Below, in pieces: positions 13,141-39,664 of a DNA stretch of 64,000 bases. Position 1 is the stretch's first letter; each line of letters opens with the position of its first letter. This stretch comes from Sarea resinae (taxonomy: Eukaryota), in assembly GCA_026026165.1 (NCBI GenBank), contig JAPEUD010000033.1:1-64000 (forward strand), written 5' to 3'. The notes under the pieces are model-generated. The model was not told where the DNA came from. It did not search any database and worked only from the letters and a program-made list of their open reading frames with translations. Both the position numbers and the translations under genes were made by a program.

Positions 13141-14625
13141 GATGGTTTATCGCAGCTTCTACGCATCGCTCGTCTCACTCTGCTCATTACGTGTGTGTCC
13201 ATATCTAGAGAAACGGGTCTGGAGTCGGAATGCTCCCTCGTTTTCGATTTCTCTCCAGTTTTTCATCATTATCATTCTCAAATAATATTTTATCTGCTAT
13301 GGATAACCTTCAAGTCGATTACAAGAGACCGCGTGCCTGCATTGTCGTCGTAGAACAAAGATGCTACAACCATGTAGGTCGAGGTGCAATGATATGTCAT
13401 CTTTCAGGCTGTTCTCATATCTCAGCAAGAGCCCCGAGGGATCCGAAGGCCGCATGTCCCCTGTCGTGCTTCTGGAGCGACAACAAATCGACCGACATTG
13501 GCGAGGGAACACGATATATCGTTTTTCTTCCGTCTTCGTACTTCCCTTTCCAGACCTTCGTCCTCTCGACTTCTGCATTGCGACTGAAACCTCCGAAAGA
13601 AAGTGACATTTCCTCCTCGTATTTCCACCTTGCGACTTCTCAAATTAAGGCTATGCCGGCAGAATCGATGGTGTTTCATTTCCTCCATCCGTGCCCCCGT
13701 CGTTTCGACTCGCTTGGCGGTGGCTGCACTGCAGTCCCGCCGTCCCGCAGACATCCCTACTAATACATTACCCTACTACTCCGAGTACCTTGCCCCGTAC
13801 TGCATAGCATGTACACGAGTGATCCAGATTCTTCTGGTCTCATTCTCTCATCCATGGATGGTCCCGTCGTCTCAGGGTCTCGCCGGATCTCGACTGCCAT
13901 GACCATTCGAAGTCCAGGATGTCTCCATGGGCCATGAGTACTCTATGAGTACTCATAGTGATACTCTAGTATGTAGATTCCCCGATTCCTTGACCGTGCT
14001 CTGCCAGGTAGGTGCTGCATATGAGATTTCCCACCAATTGAGCCCTGGGCTTGCCTGTCGGCCTGCCCTCCGAGTACGCATAACGCACTCCACCACCGAC
14101 ACGACATGCACGTGGTGAGCGAGCTCTGCAGTCTGTATTCGTATTTGCTTCGAGCCGCCGACGATAAGCCGCCGCCAGGCCAATCCTCAATCTTCAATTC
14201 TAATCTAGAAGGCTTGCTCGGAGCATACGTTGAGGCGTGGCAGAACGGTTAAACAAACTCACAAGCTGTTTCTTTCTTTTGGCTCGGAGGAGCTTGGGGC
14301 AATTGGCGTTTCATATCCATCTCTCTCCTTCACGGCCGAACGGCCTTCTTCTGGAACCCAACGCCGGACAGACAGCATGAGTTTGTCACGTTGAGTCTTT
14401 TCCTTGACTCGTCCATACTAGCATCATATCGAATATAAAGCCAGCTCGTCTTCACCATGTTTGAACAGATCATTCTCTCTTCAGCCAACTTGCTTGCTTC
14501 ATTGACTGACCAGTCTACGTTCTTTACTTCTATCGTTGTTCTTTCGATTCACAATCGCCATCAGCAGCCCTATCTAAGCCAGTTCGGTTTTTCCCATCTT
14601 CATCCTTCTGGAAAGGAAATCAATC

Positions 14626-15954
14626 ATGCTCTTCTCGGTCACACTCGCCCTCAGCGCAGGCGCTGCCCTCATCAATGCTCTCCCTGCCCCCAACACGCCT
14701 CCCACCCGGCTCACCAAGAGGTCAAGCTGCACCTTCACCGACGCAGCCAGCGCCACGGCATCCAAGACTGCCTGCTCCGACATCGTCTTGAGCGGTATTG
14801 CCGTCCCCGCCGGCACCACCCTCGACATGACAGACTTGAACTCGGGGACCACTGTACGTGTTGCATTGCCCTGAACCTACCAGACAGCCAAGAACAATTG
14901 AAATACGTGACGCATTACTGACTCCACGGCCGCTGCCGACCAAAGGTAACGTTCGAAGGCACGACAACCTTTGGTTACAAAGAGTGGGACGGTCCGCTGA
15001 TCTCCTTCTCCGGCACCGATATCACCATCAACGGGGCATCGGGTAACCTGCTCAACGGCGAGGGAAGTAAATGGTGGGACGGCGAAGGCAGCAATGGCGG
15101 CAAGACCAAGCCGAAATTCTTCTACGCGCACGATCTCAAATCGTCCAGCATCTCGAACCTGAACATCGAGAATACGCCCGTGCAGTGCTTCAGCATCAAC
15201 GGCGCGACGGACCTCACGCTGAGTGGGATCTCGATCGACAACTCCGCGGGTGACGACGCTGGTGCGCATAATACGGATGCGTTCGATGTGGGCAGTAGCG
15301 ATGGTGTTTACATTACGGGTGCAACTGTCAAGAACCAGGACGACTGCCTGGCAATCAATTCTGGCAATGTGAGTTCTCATAGCTCTTTTTTGTTCTGCAT
15401 CGTTTCTCTCTTCCTGCTGCTCTGTCCAATTCCCCTCGATCGTCACCTCCATACTCTCACCTTCAAATTCTCAACTGACTAAAATCTCCTAACAGAACAT
15501 CACTTTCACCGGCGGAAGCTGCTCTGGCTCCCACGGCCTCTCCATCGGCTCTATCGGCGGACGCAGCGATAACACCGCCTCGGACATCACCATCTCCTCG
15601 TCGAGCATCACCAACGCCGCCAACGGGCTGCGCATCAAGACCATCTCGGGCGCCACGGGCACAGTATCCAACGTCAAGTTCGAGGACATCACCATGTCAG
15701 ACATCTCGACATACGGGATTGTGATCGAGCAAGACTACGAGAACGGCGGGCCAACCGGGACGCCAACCAATGGCGTGAAGATCGAGGGCCTGACCGTCAG
15801 TGGTGTGACCGGCAGCGTCGACAGCGATGCTACTGAAGTCTACATTCTCTGTGGCGATGGCAGCTGCACCGACTGGACCTGGAGCGGCGTCGACATCACT
15901 GGAGGCAAGAAGAGTTCCTCGTGCGAGAACATTCCTTCTGGTGCGAGTTGCTAG
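14626..15954 (+). CDS. Secreted endopolygalacturonase (GH28); exons 14626-14853, 14946-15368, 15496-15954
   Basis: Signal peptide and KR propeptide; catalytic motifs [25 protein letters not shown] near 14434. Confidence 0.95.
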
Positions 15955-29015: not shown

Positions 29016-29659
29016 ATGCCATTGATCCCTTCAACGGTCATCACAACAGCACGTCTTTCAGCGCTATCATCACACATCTCTTTCCAGCATCTATCCAGCT
29101 CTCCGCCTCTGCCTCCAACTTCCTCTGCCTCCCGTAGACGTATCGCATCGATGGCAACCGCAACGGCAACCGCAGAACGTCCTCCGATAACCTGCCACGT
29201 CCTCGACACCAGTACTGGCCGACCCGCACCTTCCGTCTCAGTCAATCTTACCCTCATCCATACGGTCGTTCCCAACTTCAGCGGGCCAGACAAACAGTTC
29301 TCATACAGGGCGGAAACCAACGCTGATGGTCGGGTGACGGCTTGGGAGCCTTCTGCTACTGTGCGGAAACTCGTTGACGTATGTAAAGAAATTGATGATG
29401 CAAACACCAGTGCAACTTGGGCGTTGAAGTTCGACACGGGTAGCTATTTTGGGGAAGACAATACGTTTTTTCCCGAGGTAGAGGTCAGATTCCTGGTCAA
29501 GCCGAGGAGTGGACACTATCATGTACCATTGTTACTGGTGAGTTTTCTTTGCCCGTTCCATACGACCCGCCTTTGGCGATAAGTAATGGAGGATGAGTTG
29601 GCTCACGAGGTTTGTTGCGAAAGAGTCCTTATAGTTACACGACGTACCGAGGGAGTTGA
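29016..29659 (+). CDS. 5-hydroxyisourate hydrolase (transthyretin-like); intron 29538-29623; second in-frame ATG at 29151
   Basis: PITCHVLDTSTGRPA, FFPEVEVRF, HYHVPLLL|SPYSYTTYRGS*, ending in the YRGS signature. Confidence 0.92.
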
Positions 29660-29826: not shown

Positions 29827-31463
29827 TCATCTCGGTCTATGTCTTTTCGCAGGTCTCCTAACGCTTCCCTCCCCGTCGAAATCAAAGACATATCCACCGA
29901 AATCGCCCTCGCCCACGGGCTCTCCGTCCTGCCCCAACTTGACCCTAGACGCAATACCCGCCCCCTGCCCCTTGTACCGAACCTCATCCTCAGTTTTCTG
30001 ATTCCTGACCTCAGGAAACGTAGGCAGCAACTCCCTACTGGTCTCCCGCGGCTGCTCCCTCCACCATCTATCCGCCTCATCAGCAAATTTACTTCGTCCC
30101 TTTCCCAGTGCCTCGCTAGCAGTCCATCTCGCGCCCGGATCCCAACGGAGGAGTCCCGCCAGTACATTGACAGTCTCTTTGGTGGTCTCGGCGAGGAATC
30201 TTCGTTCGAGATTGTCTGCTCTACCTTGGGGCATGGATTGCCTTCGCCAGCTGATAAAGTCTGGACAGCCCATCGCTAATAGCGCGGCCATGTCTTCAGG
30301 CGCGGGACTGCCAATGAGCTTTACTATGAGGGAGAGTTGTTCGATGGGTGTTTCTCCGGGCAGGCAGGGCGTGCTTAATAGAAGCTCTGCAAGGATGAGG
30401 CCGGCGGACCACATGTCGACCGAGGGAGTGTAGTTTTTTGTTCCGAGGAGAAGCTCGGGTGATCGATACCAGATCGTGACGACTCCTGGTGTTAGTGGAC
30501 GGGGTGAGTACTCGCGTGCCATGCCGAAGTCCGCTATTTTTGTAAGTAAGTTCAAATTACCCCCTTTCTAAAGGTGAGCGGACCTAGTTTCAAAACTCCT
30601 TTCGATGTGAGGAGAATGTTTTGTATCTTCACATCTCTGTTGATTTCGCCTTCAGCCCCTTGCACGCAGTGCGACTATTCGCTACCCACCTATGGATGAT
30701 ATCATTTCTATGCAAATACTCCAAGCCCTCAAGGAGTTGTCTAAAGAGACATTTGACTGGTAGATCTTTCAGTGATTGTACTTGCGGTTTCGCGGCATAT
30801 TGACCTACCCTGACTCAAGCCAAAAATGGCCTTGTGCTCATCGATAAGAACTGCCAAATCCTAGGTGGCAAGAAAGCGGCACTCCCCCACCTCGCGGCAG
30901 GGGGTTCAATAAGCCAGAAGGTGTGCCCAAGCTCACGTCATGACCTCAAGCCAAGTAAAATGATGGCCGTGGGGGACCAACCTGCTCCGCGTACTCCATG
31001 ACCATATACACCTCCTCCAATGACCGTTCGCCGACAGCGACATCTAGCACATTGATGATGTTGGTGTGCTTGAGGGACCGGAGAATGGAGATCTCTCGTA
31101 GAGCGGTGATGGGGATGCCATTCTGTCGTTCTTCCGGAAGGATGCGAACTTGTTTCAGCGCAACAATTTTCGAGCTTCGTACATCTCGAGCGCGGTAGAC
31201 GACGCCATAAGCTGAAGTAGGCACTACTAAGCTCAAGCTTAATCAATCAAGGAGAGTGACTAACTTCCTTCACCAAGCTGGTTGAGCTGCTCAAATGAGG
31301 AGATGGATGCACATCGACCTGCAACGAGAATCAGGAGAAGTATGGTACATTACGATGGAATCTCATTCCAACCTAGACAGCTGGGAGCCTGATCGAAGCT
31401 GAGCTCCTGACCCGTGACGGACATCCATCGAGACTGAGTATGCTTTGCGGATTGCTGCTCCAT
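29827..31463 (-). CDS. CDK10/CDK11-like cyclin-dependent kinase, multi-exon
   Basis: QLGEG|YGVVYRA, GIPITALREI, IADFGMARE, VVTIWYRSPELLLG. Confidence 0.88.
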
Positions 31464-32769
31464 GATTGGATCAGATTACATATGGCATCTCGAATTGAGT
31501 AGATGGTCAGCTGAATTGACTATTGAAAGACATCGACTCATGCCTGTGGATATCGACGTGCGGGTTTCACACGAGACAGAATTAAGACGATGATCTGCAA
31601 TGTCGGTCAAGCATCGCATAGAGGAACAAGGCGTCGTGGTTATTGTCGTTGTAGTTTGATAACGCGTGCCGAGTTGGGATGACCTGGATAGGCGAAGCTG
31701 ACGACACTCCTCGGCTCGGTCAGACCAAAACCACCAGGATGACGATGAAGCCTCGGTGGTTGAAATTGCAACACACTTCATGTTGCGATTTACAACAACA
31801 ATCAATTGGGCTCATAACAAAGAGGAAGATGCCGAGAAGTGAGGTGAGGGCATATAGACAGCCAGCCTACCGACTCTGGGGTGGAGACGGCCTTGTGGGT
31901 TGAGCCGCGCGTTCACAACCTCTCGCCCTGGCCCCGGGGGGCGAGGCTGGGTGAGCTAAGGCGGTCAGGTAAACTCTGCTCACGACTCCAGGCATTGACC
32001 TTCTTGGCGTTCTTTGACACTTTACCACGAACAGAGCGACACATCATTGATGCTGTCTGTTCTCGTCATGGCAGCAGCCGGCATTTTCCCGTCAACGTAT
32101 GCAATGCAATCCCCACAAGGGCCCGGCGCCACTCCCGTTGCCGGATACTTCTATCTTTGGGTCGAATGCCTTTCTGTTCATCTTAATTGGTTGTTTGTTT
32201 GCTTTGATCACGACCATTTGGGAGTGCAAGATGCCTTTTGTTTCGTTTCATTCGTCTCTTCGTGGTCTAGTCTTTCTTTTTCTCCGAAGCTTGTCTCCAT
32301 GCTCCTGCAGGTACCATCCTGGCAGCAGCGACGCCTTCTCCAATGACATGTAGGCCATATCGAGCCTGCAATAATGGCTCTACTCAATGATGCTAGAAGT
32401 CGAGGATTTCTCCTTTATGGTAGAGCGTTGATCACTCCTCCATGAAGAAAAGGACGTCCTTTGCACCATCTGTATAGACACATACCTCTCCTATAGAGGA
32501 AAGGTAAAAGCTGATAGCTTACGACTCAGCTGGCGTAATGAATCTCTTTTGCTATGATCACGCCATGATTGGTGAAAAAGGAGTGACGAACTCAACATCA
32601 TCTGTTGAAAGGGCGAGGAGCTGGAATATTTAAGGACAGCAAGTTTCCCTTCCAGATCCTCATCAATTGATCACCACACAATTCCGACCAACACTTGTCT
32701 CATCCAGAAAAATTACTTTGTTGACTTATTTCATCATTTACAAATATCTCTCTATCTCAATCATTCACT

Positions 32770-33531
32770 ATGCTTCCTAAAAATATTCTTGCTTTGGCCT
32801 CAGCCCTGGCGCTGATGGCACCAGCAATGGCTGCTCCGCCTCCACCACACACTACTTCGGTGGCTCCTCTTCCACCGCCGCCTGCTGAGCGCGACGCCCC
32901 CCCTCCGCCACCACCTACGAAGGTGCCGCCTCCACCGCATTCGAAGAGGGATCACCCTCCCCCACCGCCGAAGTCCCCGGCTCCAGTTCCTCCAAAGAAG
33001 GACGAGCGGGACGCCCCGCCGCCCCCGCCACCATCGCACAAGCCTGCTCCGCCGAAGGAGGAGCGTGACGCTCCCACTCCGCCGCCACCTACAAAGGTGC
33101 CGCCTCCACCGCATTCGAAGAGGGATCATCCTCCCCCACCGCCAAAGTCCCCAGCTCCAGCTCCTCCTAAGAAGGACGAGCGGGACGTCCCGCCGCCCCC
33201 GCCACCATCGCACAAGCCTGCTCCGCCGAAGGAGGAGCGTGACGCTCCCCCTCCACCTCCAAAGAAGTCTCCAGCTCCGCCGCCTCCTAAGAAGGACGAG
33301 CGGGACGCCCCGCCGCCCCCACCACCATCGCACAAGCCTGCTCCACCCAAGGAAGAGCGTGACGCTCCCCCTCCGCCGCCACCATCGCCCAAGCCAGCCC
33401 CTCCGAAGAACGAGCGGGATGTTCCTCCTCCTCCACCACCATCGCCCAAGCCAGCTCCTCCCAAGAACGAGCGCGACGTTCCTCCCCCTCCCCCTAAGTC
33501 ATCCGTCCCCCCGCCACCTCCTCAAGTCTAA
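32770..33531 (+). CDS. Secreted proline-rich tandem-repeat precursor (KEP-like) with 12 segments separated by (K/E)R|D
   Basis: Hydrophobic signal peptide then 19-21-aa repeats D-x-P(5-6)...PPK-x-ER or HSKR; intronless; synonymous variation between repeats; AT-rich 5' region. Confidence 0.85.
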   Translation: MLPKNILALASALALMAPAMAAPPPPHTTSVAPLPPPPAERDAPPPPPPTKVPPPPHSKRDHPPPPPKSPAPVPPKKDERDAPPPPPPSHKPAPPKEERDAPTPPPPTKVPPPPHSKRDHPPPPPKSPAPAPPKKDERDVPPPPPPSHKPAPPKEERDAPPPPPKKSPAPPPPKKDERDAPPPPPPSHKPAPPKEERDAPPPPPPSPKPAPPKNERDVPPPPPPSPKPAPPKNERDVPPPPPKSSVPPPPPQV

Positions 33532-36245
33532 ACTCATCTCTCTCGAAAAGGCTGGGCAGCCTACATTTTGATAGGCAAAGTCTAGCTCGAGGATGATGGC
33601 AGTAGCTCCGTTATGGCTACTAGCACATTTGAGCGATGAATATGGGGTTCCAACGAGGTTGGATGTTGTGGGAGCAGTTGTCGATGGCAGTGAGCAGAAA
33701 GCTAAGCAAGTGACTGCTCGACTGTGTGTACAGGTTTCGTTTGTTTTGGGGGCTGGGGAAAATCAAGGACGAAAGCTGAAGCAGCATGCTCATTCGAGGG
33801 AAAACGGATACAGCTATTCCCATCTTCAATGTTTTCCTTCGTTAGCCTCTCATGTCTTAGTTCTTTTGATTTGTCGTCACCTCTGTCCACTCTCTTTGCA
33901 TCTGTTTTGCTACTAAAAAAGGAAAAAAGGGGCGGGAAATGTCGTTTTAATATATTGGTGTAGTCGTTCATTTAGATAGAAAAATTCAATCAGACATTTG
34001 CGCTTCTAAAATTGCGATAAGTCCTGTTGTGCTTACGCGGTGTCCTAACTGTAAGAAATCAGCATTGCCTGGATTTTCAAAAGTCTGCGGTGACCCCTCA
34101 CCCTATAGAAACAGGCACCTTCAGAATTAAGTATTTTTAACAGGACCTTTTTTTTATAAATATCTCGACAAATAATCCGGGAGGCGCGCTGCTATATAGT
34201 AGGCAAATACTAGTAGGCAAATACTAGTAGGCATAGCCCGGACGAGCCGGATCATAGTCGTTTTTTTGGATGGCTCACGTAGGAACAGATCTGCCTATTT
34301 ACTAGACCTGACAGGATAAAGGTTTTGTTTATTTCTGTAGAGTAGTTTTTAGGTTATAGGAGAAGTAAGTACTAAGATCTACCTGAAAAAAGTACTTAAT
34401 TCTAAAGGTATTTTATTAGGCAGCTACTATGCATGTGCACGGCGTAGGCACAGGGCTTCAAGCCTCGATAATAATAATACGCAATCACTGGAGAGCCGGC
34501 AGATCACTGCAGAAAGACGTGATTACAAGTCTCAGGTGTCTCAGGTATAGGACTACCATTACTTGTCGTCTCAACGAGATATCAATCTGCATACTCCGTA
34601 CGAATTGCTCATGAAGCTCTTTTCGCATCAAAGATCATATCCCAGTCTTTACTTCGATGGAACCTTCAGGCTCGGGAGGGATGATTACCATTCTAGCAGT
34701 GTCCGCTTCGACGTGGATCATCTTCAACTTCAGCCCTCAAGGCGAGACCGTTTTGAGATATCATATGCGAAGGCTGCATAAAGAACCCATGAGCAATTTG
34801 TTCGTTTTGGGGCAACCTCAATCACAGCAGCACATAATCTCTTCCCATGACTCGAACGGTTGCGGGGCGGGCACTTGGAAGTCGATGTGGTGTAATGGTG
34901 GGGAGGCGGCAAGGGCGGTGGCGCAGCGAGTTGGCGGGATACAATAAATAATGCGGTGTCGTTTCGCCGATAAGCCAAGGCTCCGTACTTCAGTAGATGA
35001 GGATGACCCACCCCAATACCTTGATCTGTGGTTATCATCAGGACTAATGAAAGGTATTTACTCCATAGAGATGTGATGAAGAGCTTTTATAGAACTTGAG
35101 GTATTACTCTCGTCTTTGGAGGGCCATCCGTGCCATTCCGACGACGACGATGTCTGCTGTCGTCCCTTATGCAAACGCACATGATCAATTTCTTATCGCT
35201 AAGAATGCTGTGAGTTGGGTCAGTGAGGACCACACTAAGGCAAGGCGGCAAGGCGCGAGTGATAGATTGGTGTGGGATGGAAGGCATCCATGGATGGCAA
35301 TTGTGAAATGCCTTCCTGCGTGCAACGGGACGTGCGTTCAAGTGGTCGCTCCACCCGTCACCGCCTTTGACGCTATTCGGGCGGTCGCACATACTCCGTA
35401 CGGTAGTAGATCCTTAGCATCGTTAGCTTTCGTCGGGTCAGAGCTGCAAGCACAAGCTGAGGCACCACATAAATGCAAGCATTGCAAGTGTCAGCACGGG
35501 CACGCAACGACTGCAGACAGGCGGCTTGGGAGATTCTCTAGCCAGGCCAATCATCGCGTCTCCCTAGATAGATCTGCCACTCGATTTCATGCCTACCTCC
35601 TGCCTTGCAGACGAGTAGAAGCACCTACCTTACTGCACTGCGCAGGAGTACTACGGATACTTTGTGCTATCGTGGTAGAAACAGTAGTACTCGGAGTACT
35701 CGTACAGATACTCTACTCCGTACCTTACGCACCAATATCTCGTGTTTGAGGAATACGTAACATGACGGGTGTATGTGCCCGCCGATCAATGTTTTGGTAA
35801 TTTCGGATCAAGAGAACAGTGCATCCTCGTGACAGTCGCAATCACTGTGTTAAGGTTGTTACAGCCCAGTTGATATTCCTACGGGGAGTTGGCCTTGACT
35901 CGTAAACGGTAACCCGCATCTACGGGGTAGTGTTGTAGACGGCCGCGGACATCTTCTCCCTCGCCATCATCCGATCTTTGATCACCTTTTCTTCCAAGCA
36001 AGGCCACTCTTCGTGAATACCCCGGAGTACTCGCCAAGGGTCAGTCAGTCACCGCCTCCGAACCCTTCTCCAACCGGCCCCAGCCCCCCAGCATCTGTAT
36101 GGTAGGGTCTTCGTAAGGGACACCTTTAAACCGCCGCCCAATCCTCTTCGTGCGCGCAGTTTTGTTCAAATTACCCTCTTCGGGACCTGACTGCGGAGGG
36201 ACGGGCTGGGAAGGAATTGCCATTTTAAATACCCCATCGATAGTC

Positions 36246-37151
36246 ATGACGCGGAGGATAGTCTACGGTGCCGGCCTGGTGGCCCTTCTTATCGGTGAGC
36301 TCTCCTCTCCCCAGCCTTAATGCGGTGGAAGTTGACCGCTTTGTCTTTTGTAGCTTCGGCGATGACACTCGCCAGCATTATCGTGCCCCGATGGTTGAGC
36401 TATTACGATGGCACGGTAAGTTCTTCATCTTCTATATGAAACCTCGTCGAACATTCTTGGGGAAATGGCGTATGGCGGCCGGGCCGTAGTCTGACAGCTT
36501 TGAGCCATCCGATCCAAATCCCGCCCCCCTCCTTCTCCCCCCCTCACTACTCTCCGATAGAGATGCCGCCTCGCTGAAGTGGCCTTGAGACTTCGCGCAA
36601 TGACTGACTTAAAAGCAGGAGCACGACACCCAAATTCGCTATAGCTACGGCTTGCACAGAAGCTGCTCGTCATTGACCGGCGACTGCAAACACTTCCCCC
36701 AGTACGAGGATTGTCACGGCAAGGACCGATACTTCTGTTCGATGTGGCGATCTGTTGGATTCCTAATGTCGTTCGCCGTGGTGATGGAGGGCGGGAATTT
36801 GATCGCTTTTCTCGTCCTCTTGACCTCAGGAAAGCAGACGAGAGAAACTGGCTGGAAGGTCCTTTGCTTTTTGCTGCTTCTTGCTGCTATGGTACAATGT
36901 GCCAGCATGGCTCTTGTGGTATGTGACGGGATCAATTGGCATCAAAAGGTTCAAGACACTGATGAGAGCACCCTCGGCAGGCCTATCTTTACGATAACGA
37001 CGCGCGATTCTATCTATGGCAACTCGATAGCTCCTGGATTTTATGCACTGTCAGCTGGAGTATCCTCGCTATCACTGCTGCTGGAATCATTGCTGCTGCT
37101 ATCACCCTACCATCTGAAGGTGGATATGAGCTCATCCCTGGGGAGCAGTAG
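36246..37151 (+). CDS. Conserved fungal 4-TM membrane protein (claudin/SUR7-PalI-like topology), ~4 exons
   Basis: MTRRIVYGAGLVALLI|ASAMTLASIIVPRW...YSYGLHRSCSSLTGDC...FCSMWRSVGFLMSFAVV...SWILCTVSW...GGYELIPGEQ*; GT-AG introns. Confidence 0.75.
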
Positions 37152-38534: not shown

Positions 38535-39563
38535 TTAATACCGCGTATGTAGGCCATCCGCATCAATAACTGCCTGGCAGCGATCCGGCATTGAATCTAT
38601 CAGATCATTGAGTATCTCTGTAGAAATTTGATCCCATGCCTCTTGCACAGCAAGCCTAAGCTTATCAGCAGACTGTCGCTCAGGATAATTATCCTGAAGA
38701 TAGTCCTTCATCTTATTCCAAACTCCTTCGATAGGATTCAAGTCAGGGGAGTAAGGAGGCCATAGAATAGGTTCTATACCACGAGACTGTAGTTCCTTTG
38801 TTGTAGCTCCTGCAGCGTGGCCAGGGGCATTATCCTGCATTAGAGATAATTCAGGATGAAGTGTAAGCCAGCCATGAATTAGAGGGACTATCCTCTCAGA
38901 GTAGGTCGTTGCATTAACTGTTCCCCAGTCCTTATCCCAAATAAGTGAGGGACTAAGTGTATTTCCAGCGAAGGATCCCCAGAACATCCAGCCAGATTTT
39001 TGTGGATGCCGCTCAACAATACAGGTAGGATCCAGCTCCTCTCCAGGTCTCCGAGTCACCCAGGTCCGAGTATGCCTTCCACCAGTAACCCAGGTCTCGT
39101 CAGTCCAGAGTATCTTCTCCTAGTTCTCTCGAGTCCAGCCCACATGAATCTGTGCCCATTCTAACCTTTTCTGCCTTGTTGCCTCAGAGATAGGAGGCTT
39201 CCTTCTAGCCAGGTATCGACGAAAGCCAGCCTTCCTTAAAGCGTGCCTCACAGCGAATTCAGAGCAATCCAGATCCATCGCCTTAGGAAGATCGCACCAT
39301 CTCATCCTTCGTCTCTCTCTCGAAGAGCAGACGAACTCAATCAGTTGTTCTACCTCTCGAGAATCTAGAGATCCAGGCCTGCCGCTGCGCTTCGAAGGTG
39401 TAGGATGCTCGTGGATGCATGCATATTCAACTGCGCGGCGGGTGATTCCAAGCAACTCCGCTATCTCCTTGTATGTGTGGCCCGCCATACGAAGCGTCTT
39501 GATCTGAAGTCGCTGATCTCGAGAGAGTCGATGAGTTAGTGGAGGCGTAGATGGGCGATCCAT
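38535..39563 (-). pseudogene. Tc1-family DDE transposase with a single premature stop at 39120-39122
   Basis: HTH region, then ILWTDETW, MQDNAPGH, WPPYSPDLNPIE; two in-frame ORFs split by TAG where Trp (TGG) is expected. Confidence 0.9.
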
Positions 39564-39586
39564 CAGGTTCGAGCGACAGAGCGATA

Positions 39587-39664
39587 GAATCAGCTTCGTG
39601 GATCGATGGAATCAGCTTCGTGGATCGATGGAATCAGCTTCGTGGATCGATGGAATCAGCTTCG
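39587..39664. repeat. 22-bp tandem repeat (GAATCAGCTTCGTGGATCGATG) x3.5 in the Tc1 5' region
   Basis: Identical units starting at 39587, 39609 and 39631, plus a partial fourth. Confidence 0.9.

Follow-up and report, generated by a model that had tools for sequence, protein, structure and literature searches.

A proline-rich repeat protein of Sarea resinae as a candidate Kex2-processed precursor with mainly K-x-E-R|D junctions

A window of 64,000 nucleotides of the Sarea resinae genome was analyzed, and the open reading frame (ORF) at 32770-33531 (+) was characterized together with its surroundings. The encoded protein is best read as a KEX2-processed repeat protein (KEP) that would be cut mostly at K-x-E-R|D sites and would probably release bulk extracellular polyproline peptides; on the basis of the sequence this reading is given about an even chance. 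The ORF is a real gene, and its protein sequence is under selection in the ORF frame, the direction of which is clear.

Gene structure, repeat units and selection

The ORF is intronless (32770..33531, + strand), encodes 253 aa from ATG to TAA, and is single-copy, as no paralogue was found in its own genome. With the patterns scanned, no splice donor or branch-site consensus was detected inside it. An A is located at position -3 of the ATG, and a TATA-like element (32626..32633, + strand), recognized in the sequence with a simple motif scan and putative in its function, lies about 140 nt 5′ of the ATG and is followed by a pyrimidine-rich leader. The protein contains 115 Pro, while Cys, Tyr, Trp, Phe, and Gly are all absent, and a Pfam scan of the protein yielded no family. 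The N-terminus has a hydrophobic core with a Kyte-Doolittle mean (9-residue) of up to 2.48 and terminates in A-M-A. It fits a predicted signal peptide comprising residues 1-21 (32770..32832, + strand) with a putative cleavage site after residue 21, and the original prediction of a signal peptide is thereby supported at the level of hydropathy.

The predicted signal peptide is followed by twelve Pro-rich units, i.e., a first unit of 20 aa, ten internal units of 19-21 aa, and a last unit of 18 aa. They are separated by 11 R|D junctions, two with KR and nine with ER. Both the unit structure and these junction counts are as originally predicted. The first unit (32833..32892, + strand) has diverged and nevertheless ends in P-A-E-R|D. 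Directly after it a block of three units, which end in HSKR, KKDER, and KEER, is present in two copies (copy 1: 32893..33066, copy 2: 33067..33240, both + strand). This higher-order duplication, which had also been noticed before, is real: repeat detection gave a period of 174 bp, 2.2 copies, and 93% matches, and a codon comparison revealed seven synonymous and three non-synonymous differences between the two copies. Four more units of 21, 19, 19, and 19 aa (33241..33474, + strand) end in KKDER, KEER, KNER, and KNER, respectively, and the last unit (33475..33531, + strand) has no C-terminal basic site and is followed by the stop codon.

The differences between repeats indicated purifying selection. 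Comparison of the 174-bp copies resulted in a pN of 0.024 and a pS of 0.15, and for the five 19-aa units of one type the values were 0.058 and 0.45, respectively, whereby the unit pairs are not independent. Four of the five other reading frames gave the opposite direction of pN/pS; the remaining one is codon-aligned with the ORF as its antisense shadow. These values bear on the possibility that the sequence is a non-functional, GC-rich minisatellite, which has expanded and is open by chance. Such an origin would be in line with the lack of a homologue and of a Pfam family and with the blank exact look-up (see below), but it would not account for repeat differences that are mostly synonymous only in the ORF frame and its antisense shadow, nor for the predicted signal peptide, the TATA-like box, and the A at position -3. 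It is therefore regarded as the least probable of all explanations.

The RNA support for the gene is weak. In one wood-decay metatranscriptome, which was available as assembled contigs, near-identical contigs of neighbouring genes were found. A contig of 357 nt, with two other letters and one gap, maps to 33647..34002 (strand not assigned), starts 116 nt after the stop codon, and could represent a 3′-UTR. The bins at 33122-33723 were covered at a depth of 1.1-1.2 (pieces unlisted), and the bins at 31316-33121 were not covered. Metatranscriptome contigs of this kind show neither strand nor transcription, and carry-over of DNA is possible, because one RNA contig (34588-34827) covers a region in which the two overlapping ORFs that were scanned had no Pfam match. 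The contig 3′ of the stop codon does not establish transcription of the ORF. In one RNA contig 86 nt with GT..AG borders (29536-29623) were skipped, which would fit a 3′-terminal intron of a transthyretin-like gene.

The genome is that of a filamentous ascomycete, as a Get3 exon has an identity of 80-87% with named proteins of Pezizomycotina; a Get3 tree of 17 rows, selected among the 120 listed, gave no resolution at the level of the fungal class. The gene is flanked by genes for a protein kinase and for a small membrane protein; a DDE transposon is located at a distance of about 5 kb, and an AT-rich region at 9-11 kb. The downstream gene (36247-37100, +) is small and spliced and encodes several hydrophobic segments; a Pfam scan of one of its ORFs remained without a match at E<=0.01. 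The transposon (38535-39611, -), which borders on the AT-rich region, encodes a transposase of the Tc1/mariner type in two open frames next to each other (DDE_3, HTH_Tnp_Tc3_2) and is apparently not RIP-mutated. At 42000-64000 the GC content drops sharply to about 30%, and from 44 kb on the TpA/ApT ratio is 1.65-1.81 and the (CpA+TpG)/(ApC+GpT) ratio is 0.54-0.67, which is the usual signature of RIP-mutated repeats. The region at 14600-15954 (+) encodes a GH28 polygalacturonase, which has a signal peptide and, for its pro-peptide, a canonical KR site.

The R|D junctions and their possible recognition by Kex2

The 11 junctions are located at residues 41, 60, 80, 99, 118, 138, 157, 178, 197, 216, and 235. 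P1 is Arg and P1′ is Asp at all of them, although Arg is encoded by four different codons and Asp by both of its codons. Arg never occurs at any of the 26 Lys positions, every Arg sits at a junction, and all 11 Arg precede Asp. When the mature sequence was shuffled 100,000 times, not more than six RD were obtained. The 11 RD are not 11 independent events, however, because the units originate from one ancestor. The KR junctions at residues 60 and 118 are both H-S-K-R|D, and eight of the remaining nine junctions are K-x-E-R|D, the ninth being P-A-E-R|D. Accordingly, P2 is Glu at nine and Lys at two junctions, and P4 is Lys at eight, His at the two KR sites, and Pro at one. Among the junction positions P3 varies most, with five different residues, including Asp at three of the 11 sites. 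P2′ is Ala or Val at nine junctions and P4′ is Pro at ten. Invariance together with synonymous change is also seen at five Pro positions in the flanks. All four KK sites of the protein are within units.

In the original prediction the possible cleavage at ER had been deduced from the observation that KR and ER occupy the same register. The register is indeed shared, but the argument is reduced to a single AAG/GAG difference in one unit type, because the two KR sites correspond to each other in the two copies of the 174-bp block.

The ER junctions can also be judged by the published specificity of Kex2. Kex2 has Arg at P1, Glu is among the top five alternatives at P2, and P4 is aliphatic, including Pro, while P3 is free and has no contact to the enzyme, but Asp is unfavourable there (PMC8528282). 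Cleaved sites are enriched in acidic and small residues at P1′ and P2′, and an acidic P4′ is favoured (Bader 2008, PMC2515848). In Pichia the site R-S-I-R was cut to 29%, Kex2 was responsible, and a change of the P4 Arg abolished the cleavage (Huang 2018, PMC6223083). Since this site needs the P4 Arg, the two basic residues need not be paired; the precedent differs from the present case in that P4 is Arg and not Lys and P2 is Ile and not Glu. For the K28 precursor it was reported that E-R is cleaved as efficiently as K-R (PMC13449100 (2026), citing Riffer 2002), and peptidomics of basidiomycete KEPs hinted at cuts after a single Arg (PMC9769878). As Arg is at P1, Glu is tolerated at P2, a basic P4 helps, and P1′ is acidic, a Kex2 cut at K-x-E-R|D is plausible. 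Judged from the sequence, K-x-E-R|D would be a credible Kex2 site, and ER cleavage would be plausible with a precedent in K28. The case for ER cleavage is better than the original prediction had made it, yet it is less surprising than had been implied.

Among the features of the protein itself that speak for cleavage are the restriction of Arg to P1 before Asp, the variable P3, which accords with a position that does not contact Kex2 (PMC8528282), and the retention of ER|D in the diverged first unit, while the last unit is free of a site. On the other side, the invariance of the junctions is not special, as the flanking Pro are equally invariant and the units share one ancestor. Asp at P3 in three of the 11 sites is unfavourable, and P4′ is Pro in ten of 11 instead of acidic. 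In addition, another repeat precursor of the same genome has KR spacers, which was counted against cutting at ER. It is encoded on a different contig (G000:C70), where 11 UstYa/DUF3328 exon matches were found at about 25-41 kb (L019, L020) around a secreted repeat precursor, the ORF of which lies on the minus strand near L019:8290-8660 and contains about four Tyr/Trp-containing units of 24 aa with KR between them. From its sequence this cluster is read as a dikaritin-type RiPP locus.

The genome contains one match to a P-domain proprotein convertase, the catalytic exon of which matches yeast kexin with an E value of 1.4e-96. The VDDG and SDDxHGT stretches, which we take to be the P2 pocket, match yeast Kex2, and their acidic residues are intact. 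Because these acidic residues have been kept, nothing in the sequence suggests an adaptation to Glu at P2, and the enzyme is a canonical Kex2. In the Kex2 gene itself (L018:1154-4006, G000:C59) the apparent end of the pro-domain, L-E-K-R, is followed by a short segment ending in I-P-E-R, which is a second possible ER site.

The same junctions could also belong to a secreted structural protein, which would remain uncut or be cleaved at no more than its two KR sites and would form an O-mannosylated polyproline-II rod of the wall or matrix. KR-only cutting would result in pieces of 39, 58, and 135 aa, and K-x-E-R-D would represent regularly spaced charged knuckles. That nine of 11 junctions have no dibasic motif, that the Pro positions are conserved as well as R and D, and that three sites have Asp at P3 all speak for such a rod, and the published KEP surveys admit dibasic sites only (PMC6339444, PMC7329392). 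Furthermore, the best feature match in the Atlas was an Ascomycota cluster named ‘Related to early nodulin 75’ with a score of 0.79, which is a lead only. However, Arg is confined to positions that precede Asp and is not used at any of the 26 Lys positions, a pattern that a purely electrostatic role would not need; the protein has no Cys or Tyr for cross-linking and no hydrophobic C-terminal tail for a GPI anchor; and ER|D has been retained even in the diverged first unit. The uncut or little-cut structural protein is the main alternative, which we hold tentatively and at clearly less than even confidence.

Predicted peptides and their possible functions

If the protein is processed as a KEP, the signal peptide would mediate entry into the endoplasmic reticulum, and in the late Golgi the single Kex2 of the genome would cleave both H-S-K-R|D sites behind their Arg. 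For the P-A-E-R|D site and the eight K-x-E-R|D sites the published specificity would suggest that the cut is probably slower and incomplete, with the Glu at P2 being offset by a basic (or Pro) P4 and the acidic P1′. A Kex1-type carboxypeptidase would be expected to trim the C-terminal R or KR. Up to 12 linear peptides would result, which would lack aromatic residues and form rigid polyproline-II rods resistant to proteases. The predicted trimmed products were computed to have 17-20 aa, 47-59% Pro, and a net charge of -1 to +1. They contain one to three Ser/Thr each, which could be open to O-mannosylation, and are devoid of Cys, Tyr, and N-glycosylation sites. Monoisotopic masses calculated for the trimmed products without modification include 1726.90, 1831.95, 1859.98, 1886.95, 1914.98, 2001.03, 2029.06, and 2089.12 Da. 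In being neutral, the units differ from cationic Pro-rich antimicrobial peptides.

The new N-termini are D-A in six of 11 cases, D-V in three, and D-H in two. The original prediction had referred to X-A/X-P dipeptides as Ste13 substrates, but trimming by Ste13 is not supported, since the third residue is Pro at 11 of 11 new ends and blocks enzymes of the DPP-IV type. A DPP-IV-family gene is present in the genome. DPP-4 does not cut before Pro (PMC5665424), and we infer that the same rule applies to Ste13; because residue 3 is always Pro, no Ste13 trimming would be expected.

Provided that processing is real, our analysis points, with somewhat less than even confidence, to a bulk extracellular role of the peptides, either as a coating of the surface or matrix or in the binding of plant polyphenols, and not to a receptor-specific signal. 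A bulk product is suggested by the many near-identical, rigid, hydrophilic rods that would be made per transcript. The closest working analogy found is that of the salivary basic proline-rich proteins, which are fully cleaved by convertases and some products of which bind tannins and take on a polyproline-II conformation (PMC10454625). As to the ecology, there is a single hint, namely that one sequencing run is labelled wood decay. A more far-reaching version, according to which all nine ER|D would be cut efficiently, K-x-E-R|D would be the repeated Kex2 spacer of an overlooked class of fungal precursors, and the peptides would soak up polyphenols of wood or bark, is considered improbable. If it were true, neutral polyproline peptides would be the fungal counterpart of the salivary proline-rich proteins.

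Host mimicry had also been suggested originally; the peptides, once released, would resemble systemin, HypSys, or extensin of plants and could serve to manipulate a plant host. Size and Pro content are alike, and a GH28 pectinase gene is present within the window. The comparison was made with the eight systemin residues quoted in the original prediction and with 5000 shuffles per model. The local match had a score of 6, which was equalled by 151 of 5000 full shuffles. However, the score was also reached by 2118 of 5000 shuffles that kept only the junction residues, the match crosses the KR|D junction, and the best score inside any unit was 4. As the match spans the KR|D cut, the proposed processing would destroy the systemin-like stretch. 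The likeness to systemin is a Pro-flanked KRD, which is explained by composition. Systemin reportedly needs its C-terminal part for receptor activation, and the match does not cover any peptide end. Extensins are defined by Ser-Hyp3+ and are cross-linked via Tyr (PMC8012813), and the protein contains neither SPPP nor Tyr (zero occurrences each). In addition, a living plant host is not in evidence, the sole run that contained this DNA being labelled wood decay. The proposed likenesses to extensin and to systemin/HypSys were thus not upheld, and host mimicry is highly improbable.

It is also very unlikely that the protein is the precursor of a cyclic RiPP of the dikaritin type or of an alpha-type pheromone. 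The signal peptide and the R|D-A repeats recall the KR|DA of alpha-factor, and DUF3328 genes exist in the genome. However, none of the 14 UstYa/DUF3328 matches is on the contig of the gene (C71), where its neighbourhood comprises a kinase gene, a transthyretin-like gene, Get3, and a transposon. Cyclisation of dikaritins uses Tyr, and the units contain no Tyr, Trp, Phe, or Cys; a nearby DUF3328/UstYa gene and an aromatic core, both of which characterize dikaritins, are therefore missing here. Pheromone profiles carry Trp (PMC7329392), which is absent from the units, and a removable X-A/X-P, as in alpha-pheromones, is not given with Pro at residue 3.

Relation to known precursors

Several searches for relatives were performed. 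A word-index search among proteins of 139-443 aa yielded none of 8000 candidates at E<=0.01, and a query with residues 36-105 yielded none of 4796 candidates at E<=10. HMMER against 1.84 billion representatives gave four matches, all of which were unrelated Pro-rich repeats without R|D units. An exact look-up found none of four sequences (three forms of the protein and one fragment of a neighbour). In metagenome contigs the DNA pattern for K-x-E-R-D-[AV]-P5 had no match, and none of the 597 matches of a further pattern search was confirmed. In the Atlas the whole protein had no usable feature match, structure matches had a TM of <=0.27, and partial-sequence matches reached <=0.79; the Atlas contains the sequence from residue 20 on, possibly from the same genome, and the pLDDT of the model was 0.35. 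The sensitivity of these homologue searches is weakened by low complexity and poor coverage of eukaryotic genomes, so that they do not establish the absence of relatives. A search for tandem ER[DE] in the own genome resulted in 570 matches versus 557 in the control and was swamped by GA microsatellites. The supplement text of two KEP surveys did not contain a matching motif, but KREA and PPPPP were also absent from the text of Umemura, which is thus probably sequence-free. The full-text literature searched, with few subscription papers covered, contained no description of a fungal repeat precursor with ER spacers and no mention of the present protein.

KEPs, e.g., the alpha-factor precursor and Rep1 of Ustilago, also have a signal peptide and tandem units at Arg-containing sites (Le Marquer 2019, PMC6339444; Umemura 2020, PMC7329392). 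There are about five of them per ascomycete genome, and since 2560 of 7878 are without a homologue (Umemura 2020, PMC7329392), an orphan KEP is ordinary. The protein is single-copy, no homologue of it was found, and it is without a DUF3328 neighbour, which 78% of KEPs also lack. With its ten internal units it exceeds the minimum of three similar repeats of 8-100 aa, and a Kex2 is encoded in the genome (one P-domain match). In contrast, dibasic bounds (KR, RR, KK, RK) are found only as KR at two of 11 junctions, and the units are about half Pro and free of aromatic residues. When the cutting step alone of the KEP pipelines was applied to the protein, cutting at KR/RR resulted in three pieces, versus the four required by the pipeline of Le Marquer (PMC6339444), and the KK fallback (Le Marquer) or the KR/KK/RK/RR rule (Umemura) led to boundaries off the units. 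What is unusual is the predominance of K-x-E-R|D as the spacer.

The combination of Arg at P1 and a P2 that is not basic, including Glu, is also found in the E-R of the K28 preprotoxin and the LxxR of K2PP effectors. These are single sites in globular precursors, whereas here K-x-E-R|D occurs eight times as the main spacer and P4 is Lys, not Leu. The human salivary proteins PRB1, PRB2, and PRB4 are likewise Pro-rich precursors without aromatic residues, but they are rich in Gln and Gly and the units of the present protein in Lys, Ala, Asp, and Glu; secretion is predicted here, and the analogy is functional only. With plant extensins, systemin, and HypSys the protein shares the high content of Pro, the presence of Lys and His, and a predicted peptide size near 18 aa. 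Hydroxylation and arabinosylation are modifications of the plant peptides.

Taken together, if the junctions are cut, a polyproline type of peptide would be added to the fungal secretome. KEP catalogues that are confined to dibasic sites would miss or mis-cut proteins with mainly K-x-E-R|D spacers. With KR and ER spacers in near-identical flanks, this one protein offers an internal test of the tolerance of Kex2 for Glu at P2 in the presence of Lys at P4.
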